The translations under genes were made by a program, and so were the position numbers. Below are positions 1,353 through 15,772 of a DNA stretch of 32,000 nucleotides, one piece after another; positions within the stretch are counted from its first letter, which is position 1, and the number at the start of each line of letters is the position of its first letter. A model generated the notes under the pieces. The model made no database searches. It worked only from the letters and a program-made list of their open reading frames with translations, and was not told the origin of the DNA. This DNA comes from Oceanicella sp. SM1341. Lineage in GTDB: Bacteria; Pseudomonadota; Alphaproteobacteria; Rhodobacterales; Rhodobacteraceae. The stretch lies in assembly GCF_003448965.1 (NCBI RefSeq), contig NZ_QRGC01000030.1:6991-38990 (forward strand), given 5' to 3'.

Positions 1353-3344
1353 ATGTCCGGTACCAAGATCCTCTGGGGGCAGATCCTCACGGTCTTTCTG
1401 ATCGTTCTTCTCACCACCTGGGGCGCGACCGAATATGTCGCCTGGAGGCTCGGGTTTCAGGCGCAGCTCGGATCGCCCTGGTTCATCCTGCTGGGCTGGC
1501 CGGTCTATCTGCCGCCGTCCTTCTTCTGGTGGTGGTATGCCTACGATGCCTATGCCCCCGACATCTTCGTCCGCGGCGCCTTCATCGCCGCGTCGGGCGG
1601 TTTCCTCGCCATCGCTGTCGCGATCGGCATGTCGGTCTGGCGCGCACGCGAGGCCAAGAAGGCGGAAACCTATGGCTCGGCGCGTTGGGCAGAGGCGCAG
1701 GAGGTGAAGTCGGCCGGGCTGCTGCGCCCCGATGGCGTGGTGCTCGGGCAATATAATCGTGACTATCTTCGCCACGACGGGCCGGAGCATGTCCTGTGTT
1801 TCGCGCCGACCCGATCAGGCAAGGGCGTCGGTCTCGTCGTCCCGTCGCTGCTGACCTGGCCCGGATCGGCGATCGTCCACGACATCAAGGGTGAGAACTG
1901 GCAGCTCACCTCCGGGTTCAGATCGCGCCACGCCCGCGTGCTCCTGTTTGACCCAACCAACGCCAAATCCGCCGCCTACAATCCGCTGCTCGAAGTGCGG
2001 CGCGGCGAATGGGAAGTGCGCGATGTCCAGAACATCGCCGACATCCTGGTCGACCCCGAAGGCAGCCTCGAGAAGCGAAACCATTGGGAGAAGACCTCTC
2101 ATGCGCTCTTGGTCGGCGCCATCCTGCATGTGCTCTATGCCGAGACGGACAAGACGCTGGCCGGTGTCGCCGCCTTCCTCTCCGACCCAGGGCGGCCAAT
2201 CGAGTCGACGCTGGCCACCATGATGAAGACGGCGCATCTGGGGCAGGGGGGACCGCATCCCGTCATCGCCAGCGCGGCGCGCGAACTGCTCAACAAGTCC
2301 GACAACGAGCGCTCGGGCGTGCTCTCCACGGCCATGTCGTTCCTCGGCCTCTATCGCGATCCTGTGGTGGCCGAAGTTACCCGGCGCTGCGACTGGCGCA
2401 TCGGCGACATCGTGGGCGCAAAAGACCCCACCACGCTCTATCTCGTCGTTCCTCCCTCCGACATCAACCGCACCAAGCCGTTGATCCGCCTGATCCTCAA
2501 TCAGGTGGGCCGTCGACTAACAGAAGATCTGCAGGCGAAAGCGGGCCGCCACCGGCTGCTGCTGATGCTCGACGAGTTTCCGGCGCTCGGCCGGCTCGAC
2601 TTCTTCGAGAGCGCACTCGCCTTCATGGCCGGTTATGGGCTGAAAAGCTTCCTGATCGCGCAATCGCTGAACCAGATCGAGAAGGCCTACGGCGCCAACA
2701 ACTCGATCCTCGACAATTGCCATGTTCGCGTCAGCTTCGCGACCAACGACGAACGCACGGCCAAGCGCGTCTCCGATGCACTCGGCACGGCCACGCAGAT
2801 GAAGGCGATGAAGAACTATGCCGGACACAGGCTCAGCCCCTGGCTCGGGCACCTCATGGTGTCGCGCTCGGAGACCGCGCGGCCGCTGCTCACCCCCGGC
2901 GAAATCATGCAGCTTCCGCCGAGCGACGAGATCGTCATGGTCGCGGGCACACCACCGATCCGGGCGAAGAAGGCCCGCTACTACGAGGACGCGCGCTTCA
3001 GCGAACGCATCTTGCCGCCACCGGCACACAGCGCGCCGAATGAGGGCCGCCCGGATGATTGGACCACGCTTCCATTGCCGGCGCGCCCGGCAGTGGCTGA
3101 GACGAAGGGTGCAACAGTGTCTCAGGACGAGGATACGACCGACTCCGAGCGCCGCCGTCAACCCGAACTCAGCCGGGTGAAGCCGGTGGAAAAGAAGGTA
3201 CCGATCGACAACCCCTTCGAACTGGATGCTGATCGAGACGAGGAGCTCGACGATGCTGCAACGCGCAATCAGCGCATGACCGGGCTCATGCAAGGGGTGG
3301 CGCGGCAGGTCTCGCTTGATCCGAACGACGGCATGGAGCTGTGA
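1353..3344 (+). CDS. traG: Type IV coupling protein TraG (VirD4 family)
   Basis: 663 aa with N-terminal hydrophobic segments. Walker A is APTRSGKGVGLVVPS and Walker B is LLLMLDEFPALG. SD AGGAAAGG lies upstream of the ATG at 1353. Confidence 0.95.
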   Translation: MSGTKILWGQILTVFLIVLLTTWGATEYVAWRLGFQAQLGSPWFILLGWPVYLPPSFFWWWYAYDAYAPDIFVRGAFIAASGGFLAIAVAIGMSVWRAREAKKAETYGSARWAEAQEVKSAGLLRPDGVVLGQYNRDYLRHDGPEHVLCFAPTRSGKGVGLVVPSLLTWPGSAIVHDIKGENWQLTSGFRSRHARVLLFDPTNAKSAAYNPLLEVRRGEWEVRDVQNIADILVDPEGSLEKRNHWEKTSHALLVGAILHVLYAETDKTLAGVAAFLSDPGRPIESTLATMMKTAHLGQGGPHPVIASAARELLNKSDNERSGVLSTAMSFLGLYRDPVVAEVTRRCDWRIGDIVGAKDPTTLYLVVPPSDINRTKPLIRLILNQVGRRLTEDLQAKAGRHRLLLMLDEFPALGRLDFFESALAFMAGYGLKSFLIAQSLNQIEKAYGANNSILDNCHVRVSFATNDERTAKRVSDALGTATQMKAMKNYAGHRLSPWLGHLMVSRSETARPLLTPGEIMQLPPSDEIVMVAGTPPIRAKKARYYEDARFSERILPPPAHSAPNEGRPDDWTTLPLPARPAVAETKGATVSQDEDTTDSERRRQPELSRVKPVEKKVPIDNPFELDADRDEELDDAATRNQRMTGLMQGVARQVSLDPNDGMEL

Positions 3345-3793
3345 ACGCGATGACCGAACGCAAGAAGAAGGCGCAGATCTCCGTCTATCTTGATCCCGGA
3401 ATCATGGAGATGCTGGCGGATTATGCCGCGCGCCGGGATCAGCCGCAGTCGATGATCGCTGAAGCCGCCATCGCCTCGTTCCTGTCGCCTGACGCCGCTG
3501 AACGGCGCGAAGCGGTGATCGTCAAACGTCTCGACCAGATCGACCGGCGCATGACCCGACTCGAACGTGACATGGGCATTGCCATCGAGAGCCTGGCCGT
3601 GTTCATCAAATACTGGGTGGCCACCACACCGGCATTGCCGGAACCGGCCGCCCAGGCCGCTCGCGCCAAGGCCGGGGAGCGCTACGATCAATTCGTCACG
3701 GCGCTCGGCCGCCGTCTCGCGAAAGGCCCGAAACTTCGACAGGAAATATCTGAAGACGTTGGGCAGACGCAGGAATCGGGCAGAGGAACCTGA
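3341..3793 (+). CDS. Ribbon-helix-helix (CopG-like) protein of the traG-trbB intergenic position
   Basis: The start is a GTG overlapping the traG stop (GTGA at 3341-3344), with an alternative ATG at 3350. The N-terminus KKKAQISVYLDPGIMEMLADYAARRDQPQSMIAEAAIASFL fits a beta-strand/helix/helix RHH fold. The gene sits at the conserved position between traG and trbB. Confidence 0.7.
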   Translation: MNAMTERKKKAQISVYLDPGIMEMLADYAARRDQPQSMIAEAAIASFLSPDAAERREAVIVKRLDQIDRRMTRLERDMGIAIESLAVFIKYWVATTPALPEPAAQAARAKAGERYDQFVTALGRRLAKGPKLRQEISEDVGQTQESGRGT

Positions 3794-3899
3794 TCAGTTG
3801 CTGATTTAAAAGCTCGCTTCGCAGATCGGAGACGATCGCTGGCACGTGCAAGCTCACGCTTCGACCGCCGCCGTTTTCCTGTATTTGCACGCCACGCTA

Positions 3900-3999
3900 C
3901 TACGACGCTAAATACTTGTTGAATCAGCTATAAATCAGGCTCTTTTAATCATCCCCGCATGGGGGTCGCCTTTTTGTCCCCGTTGGAATCGGGGATCGG
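3900..3999 (+). promoter_or_regulatory. Candidate trbB promoter/operator and structured leader
   Basis: This is the only sizeable non-coding gap in the transfer module. It has AATCAG direct repeats at 3922-3927 and 3933-3938, 11 nt apart, flanking TATAAA (3929-3934). TTGAAT lies at 3919-3924. Alternating C4/G4 tracts run from 3953 to 3994 and the last one overlaps the trbB SD. Confidence 0.35.
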
Positions 4000-4989
4000 A
4001 TGGCAGCCTCACATCACAATTCGGAAGGGATCGCTCGAGGCGCGCGGATGCTGCGCACCGCGCTCGGTCCGGCCATCGCGACTTTCCTGGAAGACCCAGG
4101 AGTCGTCGAGGTGATGCTGAACCCGGACGGACGGCTCTGGATCGATCGCCTCTCCGAGGGACTGTCCGATACGGGCGAGCATCTGTCATCGGAGGATGGC
4201 GAACGGATCATCCGTCTTGTCGCCCACCATGTCGGTGCGGAGGTCCATACCGGAAGCCCCCGCGTCTCGGCGGAACTGCCCGGAACGGGAGAGCGGTTCG
4301 AGGGACTTCTGCCGCCAGTCGTGGCGGCGCCGGCCTTCGCCATCCGAAAGCCGGCCGTCGCGGTGTTCACGCTGCTGGACTACGTGGCCGCCGGAATCAT
4401 GAGCGCCGAACAGGCCAATGTTTTGCGCCGCGCCGTCTTCGACCGCGCCAACATCCTCGTCGCAGGCGGCACTTCCACCGGCAAGACGACGCTGACCAAT
4501 GCGCTGCTCGCCGAGGTGGCGAAGACCTCTGATCGCGTCGTCATCATCGAAGATACCCGCGAGTTGCAATGCGCCGCGCCCAACCTTGTCGCCATGCGGA
4601 CCAAGGACGGCGTCGCCTCGCTCTCCGATCTCGTCCGCTCCTCGCTGCGCCTGCGCCCCGACCGAATTCCGGTCGGCGAGGTGCGTGGCGCCGAGGCGCT
4701 GGACCTTCTCAAAGCCTGGGGCACCGGCCATCCCGGCGGCATAGGGACCATCCATGCCGGCAGCGCCATCGGCGCGCTGCGCCGCATGGAACAGCTCATT
4801 CAGGAAGCCGTCGTCATCGTGCCCAGAGCGCTGATCGCCGAGACAATTGACCTCGTGGCGGTGCTCTCCGGCCGCGGTGCCGCGCGCCGGCTCTCCGAAC
4901 TCGCCCGCGTCGAGGGCCTCGGCACGGACGGCGATTACCGCATCGTGCCCGCCACCACTCATCTCCAGCCCGAAGAAGGAACCTCCTAA
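4000..4989 (+). CDS. trbB: Conjugal transfer ATPase TrbB (VirB11 family)
   Basis: 329 aa with Walker [12 protein letters not shown], plus the EDTRELQ and [12 protein letters not shown] motifs typical of VirB11/TrbB secretion ATPases. Confidence 0.95.
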
Positions 4990-8127: not shown

Positions 8128-8885
8128 TCCGCACCCGATCCAGCGCCCGGCGCTTCGCCCTGGCGCTTCTCAGCGCGCCCGTTCTTCTGACCCCGATACT
8201 GGCGACGCCCGCCTATGCGATCATCGTGTTCGATCCCTCGAACTACGCACAAAACGTCCTGACGGCGGCGCGCGCGCTCGAACAGATCAACAATCAGATC
8301 ACCTCGCTTCAGAACCAGGCGCAGATGCTGATCAACCAGGCCCGCAACCTCGCGAGCCTTCCGTTTTCCTCGCTGCAACAGCTTCAGCAATCCGTGCAGC
8401 GCACCCAGCAACTTCTCGCCCAAGCGCAGAACATCGCCTACAACGTGCAGCGGATCGATCAGGCGTTTCAGACCAAATACGCCAATGTCTCGATGTCCGC
8501 ATCGGACGCGCAGCTCGTCGCCGATGCCAGAACCCGCTGGCAGAACACCGTGGGCGGCCTGCAGGACGCCATGCGCGTACAGGCAACCGTCGTCGGCAAT
8601 ATCGAGACCAACCGCCAGCAGATGTCGGCGCTGGTGGGCGCGAGCCAGTCAGCGACGGGCGCTCTCCAGGCGACGCAGGCTGGCAACCAGCTTCTCGCCC
8701 TGCAGGCCCAGCAGCTCTCCGACCTCACAGCCGTCATCTCCGCGAATGGTCGCGCGCAGGCCCTGCACGATGCCGAGCAGGCCGCCGCGGCTGAACAGGG
8801 CCGCGAACAGCGTCGCCGCTTCCTGACCCCCGGTTCGGGCTACCAGCCCGGCAACGCCCGGATGTTCCCGGGCAGCGACAGTTGA
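8124..8885 (+). CDS. trbJ: TrbJ (VirB5-like)
   Basis: There is an ATGA overlap with the trbE stop. A signal peptide (LLTPILATPAYA) is followed by a Q/L-rich coiled-coil-like sequence typical of TrbJ. Confidence 0.85.
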   Translation: MIRTRSSARRFALALLSAPVLLTPILATPAYAIIVFDPSNYAQNVLTAARALEQINNQITSLQNQAQMLINQARNLASLPFSSLQQLQQSVQRTQQLLAQAQNIAYNVQRIDQAFQTKYANVSMSASDAQLVADARTRWQNTVGGLQDAMRVQATVVGNIETNRQQMSALVGASQSATGALQATQAGNQLLALQAQQLSDLTAVISANGRAQALHDAEQAAAAEQGREQRRRFLTPGSGYQPGNARMFPGSDS

Positions 8886-8895
8886 GGGCAGGGCG

Positions 8896-9165
8896 ATGGA
8901 CGGCAAGACCCTCGCACGCATCGGCGCCATCGTCTTCGTCGCGGTCGCGATCACCGCCACCGTGATCCAGATGACCCGCAAAGATGCGGTGCCTCCAGCG
9001 CCCGCCGCGTCCTCCGCGCCGACGGCGGACAGGCAAGATCCGCTGAGCGCGGAGCTAACCCGATGCAGCCAGGCCGGAGAAGCCGCCACACATGATCCAG
9101 CCTGCCTTAATGCCTGGGCCGAGAACCGTCGGCGTTTCCTCGGTCACAGCAGCGAAGGGCGCTGA
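8896..9165 (+). CDS. trbK: Putative entry-exclusion protein TrbK-alt
   Basis: 89 aa. The N-terminal TM segment is LARIGAIVFVAVAITATVI and the C-terminal motif is CLNAWAENRRRFLG. It sits between trbJ and trbL. Confidence 0.6.
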   Translation: MDGKTLARIGAIVFVAVAITATVIQMTRKDAVPPAPAASSAPTADRQDPLSAELTRCSQAGEAATHDPACLNAWAENRRRFLGHSSEGR

Positions 9166-9229
9166 ACGTGAAAGTAGAGATGAAGCGCTCCATCGCCTTC
9201 CGGAGACGAGTTTCTCTATCCCTCTTCCC

Positions 9230-9263
9230 GAACCGGACATGCAGGTTTCCAAGCATCCGGCTC
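9230..9263 (-). ncRNA. Group II intron domain V
   Basis: The minus strand reads GAGCCGGATGCTTGGAAACCTGCATGTCCGGTTC. This is a 34-nt hairpin with the AGC triad, a G-U wobble, a 2-nt bulge and a GAAA-type apical loop. Confidence 0.9.
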
Positions 9264-9299
9264 TCCATGCACGGGCGGTCGTCAGCCCGTGGGTGTGCC

Positions 9300-10826
9300 T
9301 CAAACGCGTCTGAGGCGCGCGAACGCAGTCCAGAAGTCAAGCAGGGTTTCCCGATGCCTGTTTTCCCATCTTGCGTTCCATCCGTTCGGTTTCTCGATTC
9401 GCTGTTCCGGGTAACGCATGGTTCCTCCGTCAGTGAAGAACCGCAGGCGTCTGGACCCTTCGGTCCATTGCCGTCGTTTTCCGGGGGCGCTGAGATGATA
9501 GCGGCGCCGCAGGGTCGGCCAACCCGCATTGCCGTGCTTCATCTTCAACCAGCGCCCGACGCGCTGCCATATCCAGAAGTCGAGATGGCTGAACCGACCG
9601 TGCGCGCCTGTGGCGTAACGGTAATAGTTCCTCCACCCCGTGATGACCGGATTGAGCCTGTCGATGACGTAGGCAAGGTCGCGTCCCGTGGGGATGCCCC
9701 TCACCATGACCTTGATCTTGTGGCGCAGGTCGTTCAGCTTTCCCTTCGGGATGAAGAGATTGCCGACCCATCGGCCTGTCCGACAGGCTCTGGTCTGCGC
9801 CACCCGGTAGCCGAGGAAGTCGAAGCCTTCCCTGACATCGGTGATCCGGGTCTTTTCCATCGACAGTTCCATGCGAAGCTCCGTCTTCAGGAACTCCGCC
9901 AGCGCGAGCTTTTCCGCTTCCGCCTGCTCCCGCGTGCCATCCACGAGAACGACGAAGTCGTCCGCGTATCGCACCATGTAGAGCACCGGCCGACCCCTCT
10001 TGTGGTCTCTGACCCTTCGGGCCGCCGGATTGATGCTCGGTTCGCGGGGGCGGCCTGTCCACCATCCATACCGCTCGTCGATGGCTGTCAGGTAGATGTT
10101 CGACAGCATCGGCGAGATGATCCCGCCTTGCGGCGAGCCGGTGACGGGGTGGCGTTCGGTCCCTTCGACCATCACACCGGCTTTCAGGAACGAGAGGATC
10201 AGCGCCAGCACCTTGCGGTCGCCGATGCGTTTCCGGACCCGCTCCATCATGACGTGATGATCGATGGCGTCGAAGCAGCCCTTGATGTCTCCCTCTATGA
10301 CATAGCGATAGACCGAGGGTCCGCGCTTTGTCGGGTGAAGGAACCTCTGGATTCTTGCCAGAGCATCGTGGGTGCTTCGACCGCGCCGGAACCCGTAGGA
10401 GGTCGGATAGAAGTCCGCCTCGAAGATAGGCTCCAGGACCAGCTTCAAAGCCATCTGCACCAGACGATCGACCAACGTTGGAATGCCGAGTGGCCGGAAC
10501 TGCCCCGGTTTGCCGGGCTTTGGGATAAGCCGCTGCCTGACCGGTTGGGGACGATAGGTTCCGTTGCGAAGCACCTCGCGTATCTCATCGAGGAACCCTG
10601 CTGCGCCACCGGGACGCTGTTCGACCATGCGCCGCGTCACCCCGTCGGTGCCGGGTGTCTGGCTGCCCCGATTACCGGACAGCCTTCGCCACGCCTCCTC
10701 AAGGAATCGGCGGTCGCATACGAGATTGAACAGACCAGCGAAGACCTTGTCGGGGTCTTCGTTGCTCCACCGATACAGCTTGCGCTGCATGTCGAGGACG
10801 AACAAGATATTCATCTCGTTGGACAT
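9300..10826 (-). CDS. Group II intron reverse transcriptase/maturase (no En domain)
   Basis: 508 aa from the ATG at 10826, preceded by AGGAGG with a 7 nt spacer. RT motifs present: IPKPGKPGQFRPLGIPTLVDRLVQ, DIKGCFD, GSPQGGIISPMLSNIYL, RYADDFVVL. The maturase X motif is ITGWRNYYRYA. The C-terminal ~90 aa contain no Cys and no HNH signature. Confidence 0.93.
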   Translation of the reverse strand: MSNEMNILFVLDMQRKLYRWSNEDPDKVFAGLFNLVCDRRFLEEAWRRLSGNRGSQTPGTDGVTRRMVEQRPGGAAGFLDEIREVLRNGTYRPQPVRQRLIPKPGKPGQFRPLGIPTLVDRLVQMALKLVLEPIFEADFYPTSYGFRRGRSTHDALARIQRFLHPTKRGPSVYRYVIEGDIKGCFDAIDHHVMMERVRKRIGDRKVLALILSFLKAGVMVEGTERHPVTGSPQGGIISPMLSNIYLTAIDERYGWWTGRPREPSINPAARRVRDHKRGRPVLYMVRYADDFVVLVDGTREQAEAEKLALAEFLKTELRMELSMEKTRITDVREGFDFLGYRVAQTRACRTGRWVGNLFIPKGKLNDLRHKIKVMVRGIPTGRDLAYVIDRLNPVITGWRNYYRYATGAHGRFSHLDFWIWQRVGRWLKMKHGNAGWPTLRRRYHLSAPGKRRQWTEGSRRLRFFTDGGTMRYPEQRIEKPNGWNARWENRHRETLLDFWTAFARLRRV

Positions 10827-11464
10827 GGGTCCACCTCCTGCCTGCTCGCTGTATCCACTGCCTTCCTTCGCCATGTGGACGGCTTTCCCGTCCCCGGACT
10901 ACTACGAAGGCTCCGCCCCTCACCATCGCGGTCGCTGGTCGCTTCAGCCATCCGGGGTCCGACTGTTCCGGAAGCGACGGCAAGGTTCTTAGGTTCCGTA
11001 ACTGATCTCTCGCCTGCTTTAGGCGCCGACTTTACCCCGTGTGGATTCCGACCCCGATACCGCGCAAGCTCATATCGAGGCTGGCGCACGGCACGCCGCA
11101 CACCCCCAGCCCATGTGTCCATAGCACGGGCCAACGCTCCACAAATCTGCGGTTCGCACCACAGACCGACCCGCCGACTTCCGAGTTGGCGTGTCTCCGC
11201 GCGTAACGAGGCGTCCGCCATCGGTTCGGTTTCCCTCGCCATGGCAGGCTCGCTGGCCGGACCACGTACGGGATCGGAAGTCCCCGCCCGTCCGGCTTTG
11301 ATGGGTTCTGCTGATTTATGGCTCCCCGGAAGCACCCGGTTTGCCTCACCCATCGGCTTGTCACCGCATGTTGCGCCACACGGTGCGCGGGGCCTTTCAT
11401 CCCGCGAGATCAGAAACGACAATAAAATCAAAGCACTCCTTTCTTTGATCAGGACCTAACGCAC

Positions 11465-12796
11465 ATGGGCAACACCGGCGTCATCGATCACTTCCTCGAT
11501 GTCTTTACCCGCTACATCGACGGCGGCTTCGGTCTGCTTGGCGGCGAGGTCGGTTTCATCGCCACCACGCTGATCGTCATCGACGTGACGCTGGCCGCGC
11601 TCTTCTGGTCCTGGGGCGCCGACGACGACATCATGGCGCGGCTCGTCAAGAAGACGCTTTTCGTCGGTGTTTTCGCCTACATCATCTCCAACTGGAACAA
11701 TCTGGCCCGGATCGTTTTCGAAAGCTTCGCGGGGCTCGGCCTGAAGGCGTCCGGCACGGGCTTTACCACGGCCCAGCTTCTCCAGCCCGGCAAGGTCGCC
11801 CAGACCGGCCTTGATGCGGGGAGGCCGCTGCTCGATTCCATCTCGAACCTGATGGGCTATTGGTCCTTCTTCGAGAATTTCATCCAGATCGCCTGCATGT
11901 TCTTCGCCTGGGCGCTGGTGCTCTTGGCCTTCTTCATCCTCGCCATCCAGCTCTTCGTCACGCTGATCGAGTTCAAGCTGACGACGCTCGCCGGCTTCGT
12001 GCTGATCCCCTTCGGTCTCTTCGGCAAGTCCGCCTTCATGGCCGAGCGGGTGCTCGGTAACGTCATCTCCTCGGGCATCAAGGTTCTGGTGCTCGCCGTT
12101 ATCATCGGTATCGGCTCGACACTCTTTTCCGAATTCGCCGCAGGGTTTGGCGGCGCGACACCGACCATCGACGATGCGATGGCGATCGTGCTGGCAGCCC
12201 TTTCACTGCTTGGCCTCGGCATTTTCGGCCCCGGTATCGCAACGGGGCTCGTCTCCGGCGGTCCCCAGCTTGGCGCCGGATCGGCGATCGGCAGCGGTCT
12301 TGCTGCCGGCGGCATGGTCGTCGCGGGCGGCGCGGCGCTCGGGGCTGCGGCCTCCGGTGGCGCATCTCTCCTTGGCGGAGCGGCGGCAGCCGCCCGTGGT
12401 GGGGCCGCGCTCGCGGGCGGGGCATCCACCGCCTACAGCCTCGGCGCCGCCGGACAGACCGGCGCGTCCGCCGTTGCATCTGGCCTCGGCAATGTCGCCA
12501 GCACCGGCGCATCGCAGGCTGGATCTGCCTTGGTCAGCCCGCTCAGACGCGCCGCGGGATCGATGCGCGGCAGCTTCGAGGCCGGTGGGCGTGCCGTCTC
12601 CGGCGAAGCCGCTGCCGATGAACGTGCATCGGCCGCAGCCGCAGCCTCATCTGCGCCCGACAGCCCGCCTGCCTGGGCAAAGCGCATGAAGCGCTCCCAA
12701 GCCATGTCCCACGGGATGCAGGTCGCAGCCCATTCCGTCCGCAGCGGCGACAGCCACGGCAGCGGCTCTTCCGTCAACACCTCCGAAAGCGACTGA
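11465..12796 (+). CDS. trbL: TrbL (VirB6 family)
   Basis: 443 aa. The N-terminus GVIDHFLDVFTRYIDGGFGLLGGEVGFIATTLIVIDVTLA is typical of TrbL. It has multiple TM segments and a Gly/Ala-rich C-terminal tail. Confidence 0.93.
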   Translation: MGNTGVIDHFLDVFTRYIDGGFGLLGGEVGFIATTLIVIDVTLAALFWSWGADDDIMARLVKKTLFVGVFAYIISNWNNLARIVFESFAGLGLKASGTGFTTAQLLQPGKVAQTGLDAGRPLLDSISNLMGYWSFFENFIQIACMFFAWALVLLAFFILAIQLFVTLIEFKLTTLAGFVLIPFGLFGKSAFMAERVLGNVISSGIKVLVLAVIIGIGSTLFSEFAAGFGGATPTIDDAMAIVLAALSLLGLGIFGPGIATGLVSGGPQLGAGSAIGSGLAAGGMVVAGGAALGAAASGGASLLGGAAAAARGGAALAGGASTAYSLGAAGQTGASAVASGLGNVASTGASQAGSALVSPLRRAAGSMRGSFEAGGRAVSGEAAADERASAAAAASSAPDSPPAWAKRMKRSQAMSHGMQVAAHSVRSGDSHGSGSSVNTSESD

Positions 12797-12798
12797 CC

Positions 12799-13479
12799 AT
12801 GTTCAAGCGATCCGCCACCCACTACGGCAAATCCCCTCAGCCTGAGACACCCTACCAGCGGGCGGCGCAGGTCTGGGACGAACGCATCGGCTCCGCCCGC
12901 GTCCAGGCGAGGAACTGGCGCCTCATGGCTTTCGGCTGCCTCATTCTGTCCGGTGGACTTTCGGGCGCACTGGTCTGGCAATCGCTGAGTGGCTCAATCG
13001 TGCCGTGGGTGGTGCAGGTGGACAAGCTCGGCCAGGCCCAGGCCGTCGCGCCCGCGACCGCCGACTACACACCGAACGACGCCCAGGTCGCCTGGTATCT
13101 CGCCCGCTTCATCGAGGAGGTCCGCTCGATCCCGGCCGATCCGATCATCGTCCGGCAGAACTGGCTTCGGGCCTATGACTTCACCACGACCGCGGGCGCG
13201 CAGGCGCTCAACAACTATGCCCGCGCCAACGATCCCTTCGCCAAGGTGGGCAAGCAGCAAATCGCGGTGGGGGTGTCGTCGGTCATTCGCGCCTCACCGT
13301 CGAGCTTCCGCATCGCCTGGGTCGAGCGCCGCTATCAGGACGGTTCGCTCGCCAGCACCGAGCGCTGGTCGGCGATCCTCACCGTCGCGGTCCAAGCACC
13401 GCGCGATGCCGACACGCTGCGAAAGAACCCGCTCGGAATCTACGTCACCGCAATCAACTGGTCGAAGGAGCTTGGATGA
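12799..13479 (+). CDS. trbF: TrbF (VirB8-like)
   Basis: 226 aa starting 2 nt after the trbL stop. It has a single N-terminal TM (WRLMAFGCLILSGGLSGALVW) and the conserved position. Confidence 0.9.
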   Translation: MFKRSATHYGKSPQPETPYQRAAQVWDERIGSARVQARNWRLMAFGCLILSGGLSGALVWQSLSGSIVPWVVQVDKLGQAQAVAPATADYTPNDAQVAWYLARFIEEVRSIPADPIIVRQNWLRAYDFTTTAGAQALNNYARANDPFAKVGKQQIAVGVSSVIRASPSSFRIAWVERRYQDGSLASTERWSAILTVAVQAPRDADTLRKNPLGIYVTAINWSKELG

Positions 13480-14546
13480 TGACGCCGACCTTCCGCAAAT
13501 CCGCCACCGGAACAGCGGGACGCCCGACTTTCCGTATTCACGCCATTCCGGCTTTCCGCAAATCCGGCTTGCCGGTATTCCTGCTTTGCGCAACCGCGCT
13601 TGCCGGTTGTGCGGCTCATATGCCGCCGCCCGAGATTTCCTATGACCATGCCGCGCCGGCTGTATTCAAAGCCGATCCGCCGGCGCCCGTGCGGGTCGTC
13701 ACCCTGCCTAAGCCCCTGCCTCTTCCGGGCCAGTTGAAGCCGGTCGGCAAGGACGGCAAGGCAACGCCCCAGGCGAAAGACCCCCAGCAGCGGGTCAACA
13801 ACGCCAATGCCGCCGCACGCATCCAGCCCGTGCGAGACGGGTTCATAAATTCCATGCAGGTCTATCCCTTCGTCGAAGGCGCGCTCTATCAGGTCTATGC
13901 GTCACCGGGGCAGATCACCGACATCGGGCTCCAACCCGGCGAACAGCTTGTCGGCTCCGGTCCCGTGGCCGCCGGGGATACGGTGCGCTGGATCATCGGC
14001 GATACCGAGAGCGGCGCGGGCGCGTCGAAACAGGTGCATATCCTCGTCAAGCCGACCCGGCCGGAACTGATGACCAATCTCGTTATCAACACCAATCTGC
14101 GCACCTATCACATGGAACTGCGCTCGACCGAGAAGACCTATATGGCCTCGGTCTCCTGGCAATATCCGCAGGACCAGCTCATTGCGCTGCGCCGCCAGAA
14201 TCGTGAGGCGGAAACCTCACGACCAATTTCCGCCGGCGTCGATCTGTCGAAGGTCAATTTCCGCTATGCGATCACCGGCGACCGCGCCCCGTGGCGGCCG
14301 CTGCGCGCTTTCGACGATGGGCGGCAGGTGTTCATCGAGTTTCCGCGCGGCATTGCCCAGGGCGAAATGCCGCCGCTCTTCGTCGCCGGTCCCGAGGGCA
14401 AGACCTCCGATCTCGTGAACTACCGCGTGCGCGGCAATTACATGATCGTCGACCGGCTCTTCGCGGCCGCCGAGCTGCGCTTCGGTTCGGGCAAGCATCA
14501 GAAGCGCATCCGTATCTCCCGGACGGATGGGAGGCGCGCATCGTGA
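13476..14546 (+). CDS. trbG: TrbG (VirB9 family) with extended repeat-containing N-terminus
   Basis: There is an ATGA overlap with trbF. A lipobox-like LLCATALAGC is followed by a VirB9-like body (YPFVEGALYQVYASPGQITDI, TYHMELRST). About 30 extra N-terminal residues carry three P(T/A)FR(K/I) repeats. Confidence 0.88.
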   Translation: MMTPTFRKSATGTAGRPTFRIHAIPAFRKSGLPVFLLCATALAGCAAHMPPPEISYDHAAPAVFKADPPAPVRVVTLPKPLPLPGQLKPVGKDGKATPQAKDPQQRVNNANAAARIQPVRDGFINSMQVYPFVEGALYQVYASPGQITDIGLQPGEQLVGSGPVAAGDTVRWIIGDTESGAGASKQVHILVKPTRPELMTNLVINTNLRTYHMELRSTEKTYMASVSWQYPQDQLIALRRQNREAETSRPISAGVDLSKVNFRYAITGDRAPWRPLRAFDDGRQVFIEFPRGIAQGEMPPLFVAGPEGKTSDLVNYRVRGNYMIVDRLFAAAELRFGSGKHQKRIRISRTDGRRAS

Positions 14547-15772
14547 GCGAGATCGATCCCGAAAAGGAGGAAAGGGACGAATCCGCGGAGGATAGTGGTC
14601 GGCCGCTTACCGGCGAGCCGCTTACGTCCATGCGGCTTCGACCGGCGCCGCCGCGGGTCACCCGGCTGTCGCGCAAGGTGCTCGCGGGACTCGGCCTCGC
14701 GGCCAGTCTCGGCATCGGCGGTGCGCTGATCTATGCGCTCCAGAACGCGCATCCCGGTAGCCAGGGCAAGGAACTCTATTCCACCGACAATCGCGCCACA
14801 GCGGACGGTCTGGCAGGGTTGCCGAAGAATTATGGCGATGTCCCCAAGCTCGGTCCACCGCTGCCGGGCGATCTCGGCCGTCCGATCCTCAGCGCGCGGA
14901 ATGGCGGACAGTCGGTCCCGGCACCGGCCGTCGCTACGCCTGGGCAGGGCGTCAGCGAGGAAGAACGCCGGCTCCTTCAGGAGATCGAGGCCGCCCGGAC
15001 GGCCAAGCTCTTCGCCCAGACCGATGTGAGGCCCGGCAGCGCCGCGACCGCCACAACCATCGCGCCGGGAAGCATAACGCCGGACCTTACAAGTCTGGGT
15101 CTCGCACCGCAGCCCGCGACGCCTACAGCCCAGGATCGGCAACAGGACTTCCTCGACAAGGCGGCCGACAAGCGCACCGTCTCGCCCGATCGTGTCGCGG
15201 CACCTGCATCGGCGAATATCCTTCAGGCTGGCGCGGTCATCCCGGCGGCCCTCATCACCGGCATCCGCTCCGATCTGCCCGGTCAGATCACCGCGCAGGT
15301 GACAGAGAATGTCTATGACAGCCCCACGGGGCAAATCCTGCTCGTGCCGCAGGGTACGCGCGTCATCGGCCAGTACGACAACGGCGTCGGCTTCGGTCAA
15401 CGCCGCGTGCTTCTGATGTGGACCCGATTGATCTTTCCGAATGGCCGGTCAATCGTGCTGGAACGCCATCCCGGTGCGGACAGCCAGGGCTTTGCCGGTC
15501 TCGAAGACGGTGTCGACTATCATTGGGGGGAGCTCTTCAAAGGCGCGATCCTCTCGACAATCCTGAGCATCGGCGCGGAAGCGGGCTCTTCCAGCGACGA
15601 CAGCACGATCGTCCGGGCTCTCCGTCAGGGCGCCTCCGACAGCATCAGCCAGACCGGCCGTCAGATCGTGCAGCGCCAACTGAATATCGCTCCGACGTTG
15701 ACCATCCGGCCAGGCTTCCCTGTGCGGGTGCTGGTGACGCGCGATCTCGTGCTCGAACCCTATGGAGGCTGA
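14543..15772 (+). CDS. trbI: TrbI (VirB10 family)
   Basis: The GTG start overlaps the trbG stop (GTGA). The sequence has MRLRPAPPRVTRLSRKVLAGLG followed by a TM, a Pro-rich linker and a conserved C-terminal domain (GFGQRRVLLMWTRLIFPNGRSI). The track ORF start at 14291 is an upstream extension inside trbG. Confidence 0.9.
   Translation: MSEIDPEKEERDESAEDSGRPLTGEPLTSMRLRPAPPRVTRLSRKVLAGLGLAASLGIGGALIYALQNAHPGSQGKELYSTDNRATADGLAGLPKNYGDVPKLGPPLPGDLGRPILSARNGGQSVPAPAVATPGQGVSEEERRLLQEIEAARTAKLFAQTDVRPGSAATATTIAPGSITPDLTSLGLAPQPATPTAQDRQQDFLDKAADKRTVSPDRVAAPASANILQAGAVIPAALITGIRSDLPGQITAQVTENVYDSPTGQILLVPQGTRVIGQYDNGVGFGQRRVLLMWTRLIFPNGRSIVLERHPGADSQGFAGLEDGVDYHWGELFKGAILSTILSIGAEAGSSSDDSTIVRALRQGASDSISQTGRQIVQRQLNIAPTLTIRPGFPVRVLVTRDLVLEPYGG

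Follow-up and report, generated by a model that had tools for sequence, protein, structure and literature searches.

An ambigrammatic group II intron with an antisense open reading frame bridging trbK and trbL of a conjugation operon

Ambigrammatic narnaviruses carry a reverse open reading frame (ORF) opposite their RNA-dependent RNA polymerase gene (DeRisi et al. 2019, PMC6884476; Retallack et al. 2021, PMC8316113), and the sequence of the reverse product is apparently not what is selected, according to PMC8155312. Group II introns are carried by about 9% of conjugative type IV secretion system loci, and their orientation is not discussed in the paper reporting this number (Waldern et al., PMC7306698). 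Here, we describe a group II intron that lies backwards between trbK and trbL in a trb operon of Oceanicella sp. SM1341 and whose antisense strand is a single long ORF running from the end of the one gene to the start of the other. The window, i.e., the whole stretch of DNA analyzed, comprises 32,000 nucleotides (contig NZ_QRGC01000030.1, positions 6,991 to 38,990), and positions below are counted from its first letter. We classify the feature as a genuine group II intron whose antisense strand is ambigrammatic and bridges the operon.

As in the narnaviruses, a full-length reverse ORF is codon-aligned with a polymerase gene, it is open through the avoidance of UUA, CUA, and UCA codons, and its openness is conserved among relatives and patchy on the tree. 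The narnaviruses are eukaryotic RNA viruses, whereas the window element is a bacterial DNA retroelement, whose frame also crosses some 720 nt of non-coding ribozyme and has defined junctions to the host genes, with a concrete bacterial rationale, namely operon polarity. Among the matches listed, the literature on the term "ambigrammatic" concerns RNA viruses only, except for one preprint on long overlapping ORFs in Pseudomonas, and the concept applied to bacterial elements or introns was not found in the literature searched. The feature is likewise not described in the literature found on group II introns together with trbL, antisense orientation, polarity, Rho, or overlapping ORFs.

The antisense ORF of 763 aa, called the bridge ORF in the following, extends from a GTG at 9168 to a TAA at 11457-11459 (9168..11459, + strand) and spans the whole intron except for 5 nt. 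Its GTG is separated by 2 nt from the TGA stop (9163-9165) of the entry exclusion gene trbK (8896..9165, + strand; ORF list, Pfam TrbK, E 2e-36), and its TAA by 5 nt from the ATG at 11465 of trbL (11465..12796, + strand; Pfam TrbL, 8.5e-57). The frame is without stops from 9111, the previous in-frame stop being the TAA at 9108-9110, and an ATG at 9180 provides an alternative in-frame start. The bridge ORF is in codon register with the gene of the intron-encoded protein (IEP; 9300..10874, − strand), in which the codons TTA, CTA, and TCA are completely absent. The former Shine-Dalgarno (SD) sequence of trbL, GAAGGG (9154..9159, + strand), is located 8 nt 5' of the intron-borne GTG. The initial annotation had already noticed a 763-aa ORF joining trbK to trbL, with the frame open from 9111 and the TAA 5 nt before the trbL ATG, all of which is confirmed by the ORF list and the sequence. 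Its value of 7 nt for the spacing between GAAGGG and GTG is one too low, and the intron, given there as 2291 nt, is in fact 2297 nt long (9168..11464) according to its relatives and to intron-less junctions.

The intron (9168..11464, − strand; Rfam RF00029, 54.9 bits), whose boundaries were set from the alignment to relatives and from intron-less junctions, is placed exactly between the trbK stop and the trbL ATG. Its 5' end, GUGCG at 11464-11460, agrees with the GUGYG consensus, and its 3' end, ...CUACUUUCAC at 9168, aligns with those of the relatives. Domains V and VI, the latter with the bulged A near the 3' end, are found at 9168..9265 on the − strand (Rfam Intron_gpII, E 3.1e-9, 54.9 bits vs a gathering score of 40), and domain IV contains the gene of a reverse transcriptase with a maturase (X) domain (9300..10874, − strand; ORF of 524 aa; Pfam RVT_1 2.7e-31, GIIM 2.7e-15). 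It is likely that the true start of this IEP is M17 (ATG 10826-10824), which has an AGGAGG at 10839-10834 ahead of it and gives a protein of 508 aa like the database homologues. The substitutions in the IEP cluster at third codon positions (346 variable columns vs 149 and 193), and no endonuclease (En) domain was detected in it. RmInt1 is likewise an En-less intron, and the IIC-attC introns lie opposite to the transcription of their cassettes.

Removal of 9168-11464 gives TGA-AC-ATGGGC, the same layout as in the intron-less homologues on Sphingobium pCHQ1, Sphingopyxis pMC4, an Indioceanicola plasmid, and a Mesorhizobium huakuii plasmid, all four of which have the trbK stop, 2-4 nt, and ATGGG. 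The alignment of the window TrbL with the intron-less homologues begins at residue 1. The proposal that trbL once started at the GTG at 9168 (MKMGNTG...) can therefore be ruled out, because this GTG is intron sequence, namely the reverse complement of the terminal CAC, and the intron-less genes begin with ATGGG 2-4 nt past the trbK stop. The TAA of the bridge ORF is, in turn, the reverse complement of intron nt 6-8. The start, the body, and the stop of the bridge ORF thus all come from the intron.

The first codons of trbL, on the opposite strand, constitute the 5' exon of the intron, i.e., its homing site. Exon-binding site 1 (EBS1, AUGGAC; 11117..11122, − strand, sense nt 343-348), the only EBS assigned here, pairs with the last six exon nucleotides (intron-binding site 1, IBS1), which are complementary to the first two trbL codons (GUUCAU). 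EBS1 covaries with the 5' exon across the copies and also at the different target of a sister lineage, the traA site. The window EBS1 has one A.C mismatch with its own exon GCCCAU (ATGGGC on the + strand) and fits the common trbL start ATGAAC perfectly, which suggests that the window intron came from an operon whose TrbL begins with Met-Asn.

The IEP has many homologues at 78-91% identity. Every one of them for which the contig was examined belongs to an antisense intron with its 5' end touching the trbL start, downstream of trbK or, where no trbK gene is called, of trbJ. The hosts are Bradyrhizobium sp. Arg314, Sphingopyxis, Mesorhizobium, Methylocapsa, Agrobacterium vitis, Xanthobacter agilis, Sphingomonas sp. 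QA11 (two copies), and several metagenomes. In 12 of 12 distinct introns at the trbK-trbL site, a single antisense frame is open over 2276-2312 of about 2296 nt; stops in this frame of other copies, which the initial annotation had proposed to look for, are thus absent from all 12. A near-identity DNA search of plasmids returned distant copies only. At the nucleotide level, the copies are 81-91% identical to the window intron, whereas identity falls to 65-77% in the trbJ/E and trbL DNA on either side, and a single ancient, vertically inherited insertion was rejected on these grounds. The two introns of the Sphingomonas sp. QA11 chromosome (L207 and L208, CP098774.1, ca. 300 kb apart) are identical within trb clusters that are 73-76% identical, which indicates recent intragenomic homing. 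Taken together with the EBS1/IBS1 covariation, the twin copies and the difference in identity between intron and flanks imply that the intron moves between operons carrying the ORF with it. By this evidence, the intron is probably an active homing element aimed at the antisense strand of the trbL start, and the bridge ORF is to be seen as a heritable design of a mobile intron lineage rather than as the tolerance of one operon. In two of the copies, L081 (intron 2412-4706) and L204 (intron 2364-4659), the 5' ends CUGCG and GCGCG replace GUGCG, and the 3' end of L081 is also altered (...CCUGC); these two are probably impaired in splicing, although their IEP and antisense frame remain open.

The chance of the open frame was estimated for the window alone. 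In 20,000 dinucleotide shuffles, the two non-coding parts were open in the bridge frame with p = 0.36 and 0.030, so that the whole non-coding frame is only rarely open (joint p = 0.010) in the kind of control that had been suggested for it. The window IEP contains 41 CTN, 10 TCN, and 4 TTR codons and, by our own arithmetic from host codon usage, would be open with p ~0.09, giving a joint chance of ~1e-3. For a feature found post hoc, such an estimate is suggestive and not decisive.

The relatives provide much stronger evidence. The 14 IEPs of the clade (7415 codons) use CTA in 0 of 609, TCA in 0 of 173, and TTA in 0 of 44 cases, whereas other A-ending codons are common in the same genes (GTA 7%, CCA 10%, ACA 12.5%, GCA 15%, GGA 27%, CGA 17%), and the flanking host genes use CTA for 2.4% of CTN, TCA for 10.8% of TCN, and TTA for 6.5% of TTR codons. 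When alignment columns are counted, such that inherited states do not enter repeatedly, 119 of 390 control columns include an A-ending codon, as against 0 of 118 Leu4/Ser4/Leu2 columns (P = 2e-19, or 5e-9 with the rate of the lowest control family). The ribozyme part gives the same picture in 570 nt of domains I-III, which are free of sense-protein constraint. Here, at least 333 changes among 14 sequences have produced no derived stop in the bridge frame, as compared to 14 and 5 in the other two antisense frames, even though the one-step opportunities for a stop number 62 in the bridge frame vs 59 and 33 in the controls. Upon permutation of the columns, the mean number of stop columns is 12.2, and the frame was stop-free in 0 of 5000 trials.

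In sister lineages of equal GC content (0.62), e.g., L184 and the Shinella/Bradyrhizobium intron present in multiple copies (L179-183), the frame is interrupted by 3-9 stops, and both CTA and TCA are used. Of 88 more distant relatives, 7 have no stop in this frame along the IEP and 3 have none along the entire intron, and those with a GC content of 0.60-0.70 have a mean of about 4 mirror-stop codons. The reverse ORF of the window intron is nearly full-length and codon-aligned (the −0 frame), and the absence of UUA, CUA, and UCA is conserved across its relatives, as in an ambigram. The bridge ORF resembles the shadow ORFs of GC-rich genomes in lying in the aligned −0 frame and in having the same proximate cause (no TTA, CTA, or TCA). 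Shadow ORFs, however, end with the gene and are not conserved, whereas the bridge ORF crosses non-coding RNA, is conserved over 20-40% divergence, and has a codon avoidance that is not explained by GC3. The comparisons indicate that the openness of the bridge frame is under selection, and the earlier judgment that it could equally be chance does not survive the 12 open copies, the codon avoidance, and the lack of derived stops.

The selection does not appear to act on the protein. In the non-coding part, the substitutions are spread evenly over the antisense codon positions (97, 86, and 82 variable columns of about 190 each), and the synonymous fraction of codon differences is 0.24-0.26 in all frames (0.24 in the bridge frame vs 0.26 and 0.24), so that neither the codon periodicity nor the synonymous excess expected for purifying selection on an overlapping gene is seen. 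Identities of 62-82% between the antisense products compare with 79-91% between the corresponding IEPs, and in L081 and L207, the loss of 1 nt changes the reading of the last ca. 30 codons with the openness kept. The product is rich in Ala, Arg, and Pro and of low complexity; it has no Pfam family and no homologue among 5.8 billion predicted proteins. The description of the product as junk in the initial annotation is consistent with this lack of amino-acid conservation. On the available alignments, it is the length and the openness that are selected, and not the protein sequence.

The ends of the ORF are also of interest. The 3' ends of the introns come in two variants. The first, ...CUUUCAC, is read as GTGAAAG on the operon strand and places an in-frame GTG where the trbL ATG used to be, with the exon SD lying 8-10 nt before the GTG in the other copies; GTGAAAG also holds a TGA (nt 2-4), which ends trbK where trbK and trbL overlapped as ATGA (L199, L204, and L206). 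The second variant, ...CCCUAC or ...UCCUAC, is read as GTAGG(G/A), the TAG of which ends trbK (L185, L186, L207, and L081), and these four introns have AGGG or AGGA five nt ahead of a conserved in-frame ATG. At the other end, the ORF stops with a TAA 5 nt before the downstream start in 10 of the 14 sequences in the alignment (L209 at the traA site and nine introns at trbL), with a TGA 16 nt before trbL in L081 and L207, and by overlapping the start as ATGA in L206. Stops near or overlapping the next start, as in translationally coupled genes, are found in the window at both ends of the ORF (TGA-N2-GTG and TAA-N5-ATG) and are not found at the traA and capsid/ParB sites described below. The resemblance to translational coupling lies in an upstream stop that adjoins the start (GTGA or TGA-N2-GTG) and in an ORF that ends 5 nt before the ATG or as ATGA (L206), and the logic of keeping the downstream genes translated is that of engineered non-polar cassettes. 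Unlike in those junctions and cassettes, the spacer here is a natural 2.3-kb ORF laid over a probably functional retroelement, and its working as a bridge is our reading. The start and stop anatomy fits the ribosome bridge proposed below. No terminator-like site was found in 8800-11800, and a promoter scan, which covered sigma-70 consensus patterns only and is therefore weak evidence, gave none on the + strand. Downstream, trbF (VirB8), trbG (CagX), and trbI (12799..15772, + strand; Pfam) are tightly packed and all intact, and trbL, trbF, trbG, and trbI are intact in all related loci as well.

A second ORF has to be considered on the sense strand. It comprises 206 aa with a TTG start (10811..11431, − strand); its frame, +1 relative to the IEP, is free of stops from ca. 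intron nt 10 onward, crosses domains I-III, and closes 16 nt past the IEP ATG. The TTG is located 4 nt after an AAGGAG. The ORF has acquired 3 derived stops in the clade, compared with 21-26 distinct stop columns in the other sense frames, and shows no amino-acid conservation and no Pfam family. It may be a leader coupled to the translation of the IEP. The sense upstream ORF is present family-wide, including the lineages with a closed antisense frame (L002, L006, L082, L084, L179, L183, L184, and L009 were covered). The possibility that the antisense openness in domains I-III is a by-product of this ORF was rejected, since relatives that have it also have antisense stops.

Relatives with 59-77% IEP identity likewise occupy antisense positions in mobile-element operons, with a start codon 0-40 nt downstream. 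Their targets are the relaxase gene traA (L001 and L209), DUF736 (L018 and L179-183), trbI (L009), the phage major capsid gene after the prohead protease (L006), and ParB_N (L211 and L212-216), and the 5' exon of the family is the antisense of the ribosome-binding/start region. L082 also belongs to this family inserting antisense before start codons in conjugative elements and prophages. One may speculate that the constant orientation reflects reverse splicing into the single-stranded transfer or lagging strand. In the lineage of L006, L211, L212, and L216, the antisense introns are located ahead of the capsid or ParB start, at a distance of about 13 nt, and the IEPs are 74-82% identical to that of L006 and ca. 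62% to that of the window. In all four of these introns, CTA, TCA, and TTA are absent, and the aligned frame is open save for the last 34-41 nt. In the IEP tree, closed-frame lineages separate the capsid/ParB lineage from the trbL clade. As the backbone of this tree is weakly supported, we make no claim of independent origins; on the codon and stop data, both lineages are maintaining the open state.

Some further observations were made on the family. In L170, L043, and L069, with IEPs 41-45% identical, the aligned frame contains no stop along the IEP and for more than 650 nt further 5', and these may be further ambigrammatic lineages; one of the three is on a viral contig with a GC content of 0.56. 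In L005 (~1860-2430), the 5' part of the intron is replaced by a sequence similar to the IS21 IstB ATPase, as judged by eye, and the Agrobacterium leguminum plasmid p2 (L184; 414-2108 and 3049-4575) has two different group II introns in tandem. A GCGCAGCCCTCT(A/C)ACTCTC motif in L003, L004, L009, L084, and L086 is located just within the 5' end of the intron in some cases and in the flanking exons in other cases, and it is possible that it originates from a partial duplication of the intron end or from a repeated target element. L003 and L004 were used for stop counts only, because their 5' boundaries are uncertain from the repeated GCGCAGCCCTCT motif.

How might the open frame be of use? An intron that is antisense in the operon cannot be spliced from the operon mRNA. 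Given the established coupling of transcription and translation in bacteria, a stretch of ca. 2.3 kb of untranslated RNA in a translationally coupled operon should cause Rho-dependent polarity. We propose, with a probability of roughly 0.65, that the intron has a built-in translated bridge, consisting of a start, an open frame, and a stop, that averts polarity on trbL. The intron would home to the antisense of the trbL start and would hence always be backwards in the trb operon. Ribosomes leaving trbK, or loading at the old trbL SD, would translate a meaningless polypeptide of ca. 760 aa, and this translation across the 2.3-kb insert would keep transcription and translation coupled, such that neither Rho-dependent polarity nor mRNA decay would follow. 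The ribosomes would then terminate beside the trbL start, and trbL-trbF-trbG-trbI would stay expressed. The conjugative element, and the intron with it, could still transfer, while an element killing the transfer of its carrier would fail to spread. The translation of the bridge ORF, the role of Rho, and the reinitiation at trbL are all inferred. The intron shares with the site-specific group II introns of conjugative elements the ribozyme, the reverse transcriptase/maturase, the EBS-IBS homing to one conserved site, the residence in conjugation genes, and the spread by conjugation. Ll.LtrB itself, which resides in the relaxase gene ltrB, is by contrast sense-oriented and spliced from the mRNA.

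A number of points weigh against this proposal. An AGGA at 11451..11454 (+ strand), within the intron sequence and 10 nt before the trbL ATG, is a possible SD of trbL and could permit independent initiation there; it appears as AGGACC or GGGACC in most copies. The 763-aa junk protein would be costly to make. Closed-frame introns persist antisense before DUF736 (L179-183, multi-copy and intact) and also before TrbI (L009 and L086), though the latter two have broken IEPs. Of the introns at the traA site, L001 has an ORF extending ca. 100 nt beyond the relaxase start and L209 an ORF with one early stop, and in the capsid/ParB lineage the ORF ends ca. 50 nt before the ATG, so that a tight stop-restart coupling cannot be the general rule; the averting of polarity fits these cases better than reinitiation does. 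Finally, the RNA fold near the trbL start is ordinary (z = 0.68), and we therefore do not claim a sequestered start, and the antisense RNA does not resemble a Rho substrate in its C/G content any more than the neighboring trb genes do, so that no rut-site argument can be made from the C>G content.

The main competitor, which we consider unlikely, is that the coating by ribosomes serves the RNA biology of the intron itself and not the expression of trbL. Translation could block the annealing of the operon RNA to the intron/IEP transcript, with the double-stranded RNA, RNase III, and IEP silencing that this entails, or it could stabilize the operon RNA, a kind of role that has been proposed for the narnavirus reverse ORFs. 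Such a function would account for the signature shared with the narnavirus reverse ORFs (codon-aligned, UUA/CUA/UCA avoided, protein not conserved), for a feature that travels with the intron and not with the operon, and for the ORF end not being tight against the next start at the traA and capsid/ParB sites. It would leave unexplained why the start and the stop lie exactly at the trbK and trbL junctions with the trbL SD reused, and multi-copy, active sister introns manage without the ORF. That the bridge ORF is a true overlapping gene encoding a functional protein is quite improbable. The length of the ORF, its openness in two lineages, and its start codon with an SD are what one would expect of a gene, but the product has no homologue or domain and an Ala/Arg/Pro-rich composition of low complexity, and it diverges faster than the IEP. 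In the 570 nt free of the IEP, the substitutions are even by codon position with a synonymous fraction as in the controls, and the frame remains open in L081 and L207 after a 1-nt indel that shifts the 30 C-terminal codons.

One could also argue that selection on the sense strand, due to factors such as rare tRNAs or nuclease sites and together with the sense upstream ORF, accounts for the lack of UUA, CUA, and UCA, and that the antisense openness is a by-product. In domains I-III, the sense +1 frame is indeed open too, and the depletion of T at one phase (0.12 vs 0.18-0.22) eliminates two of the three types of antisense stop; moreover, GC-rich hosts use UUA, CUA, and UCA comparatively rarely. 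However, L082, L084, L184, and L179 keep the sense upstream ORF and yet have 2-5 antisense stops in domains I-III, and they use CTA and TCA in their IEPs. Furthermore, the hosts use TCA at 10.8%, and the avoidance is complete and confined to the three codons that mirror stops, which makes this explanation still less probable than an overlapping gene. The least credible explanation, to which we give hardly any weight, is that chance or the composition of GC-rich DNA produced a shadow ORF. No antisense frame stays open as easily as the aligned one, and 7 of the 88 distant relatives have it open across the IEP. However, the chance is ~1e-3 for the window alone, the frame is open in 12/12 copies and in 4/4 of the second lineage, the codon test gives P ≤ 5e-9, there are zero derived stops vs 19 in the control frames, and sister lineages of equal GC content are closed.

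We lean slightly toward a broader statement, namely that some group II introns are "translationally transparent" retroelements, which reside backwards at or just upstream of the start codons in conjugative and prophage operons and have a selected, full-length, meaningless antisense ORF with a start and a stop of its own, across which the host ribosomes can pass and which thereby abolishes polarity. Antisense insertions of group II introns are usually taken as unconditional polar knock-outs, an assumption that is made in targetron mutagenesis. If the translated bridge is real, the window intron would be the first ambigrammatic element outside the RNA viruses, and it would reveal a new means by which mobile elements neutralize their own insertion. 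The ambigram puzzle would then extend from the narnaviruses to bacteria, where it is directly testable, and the intron would be a tractable genetic model for long ORFs that are kept open without a functional protein. Annotators would have to reckon with genuine translation of long "junk" ORFs of this kind, and the arrangement suggests a design for non-polar retargeted introns. For the intron family, it would be a new strategy of selfish DNA for lowering the cost to its host while residing antisense in essential transfer and phage-structural operons.

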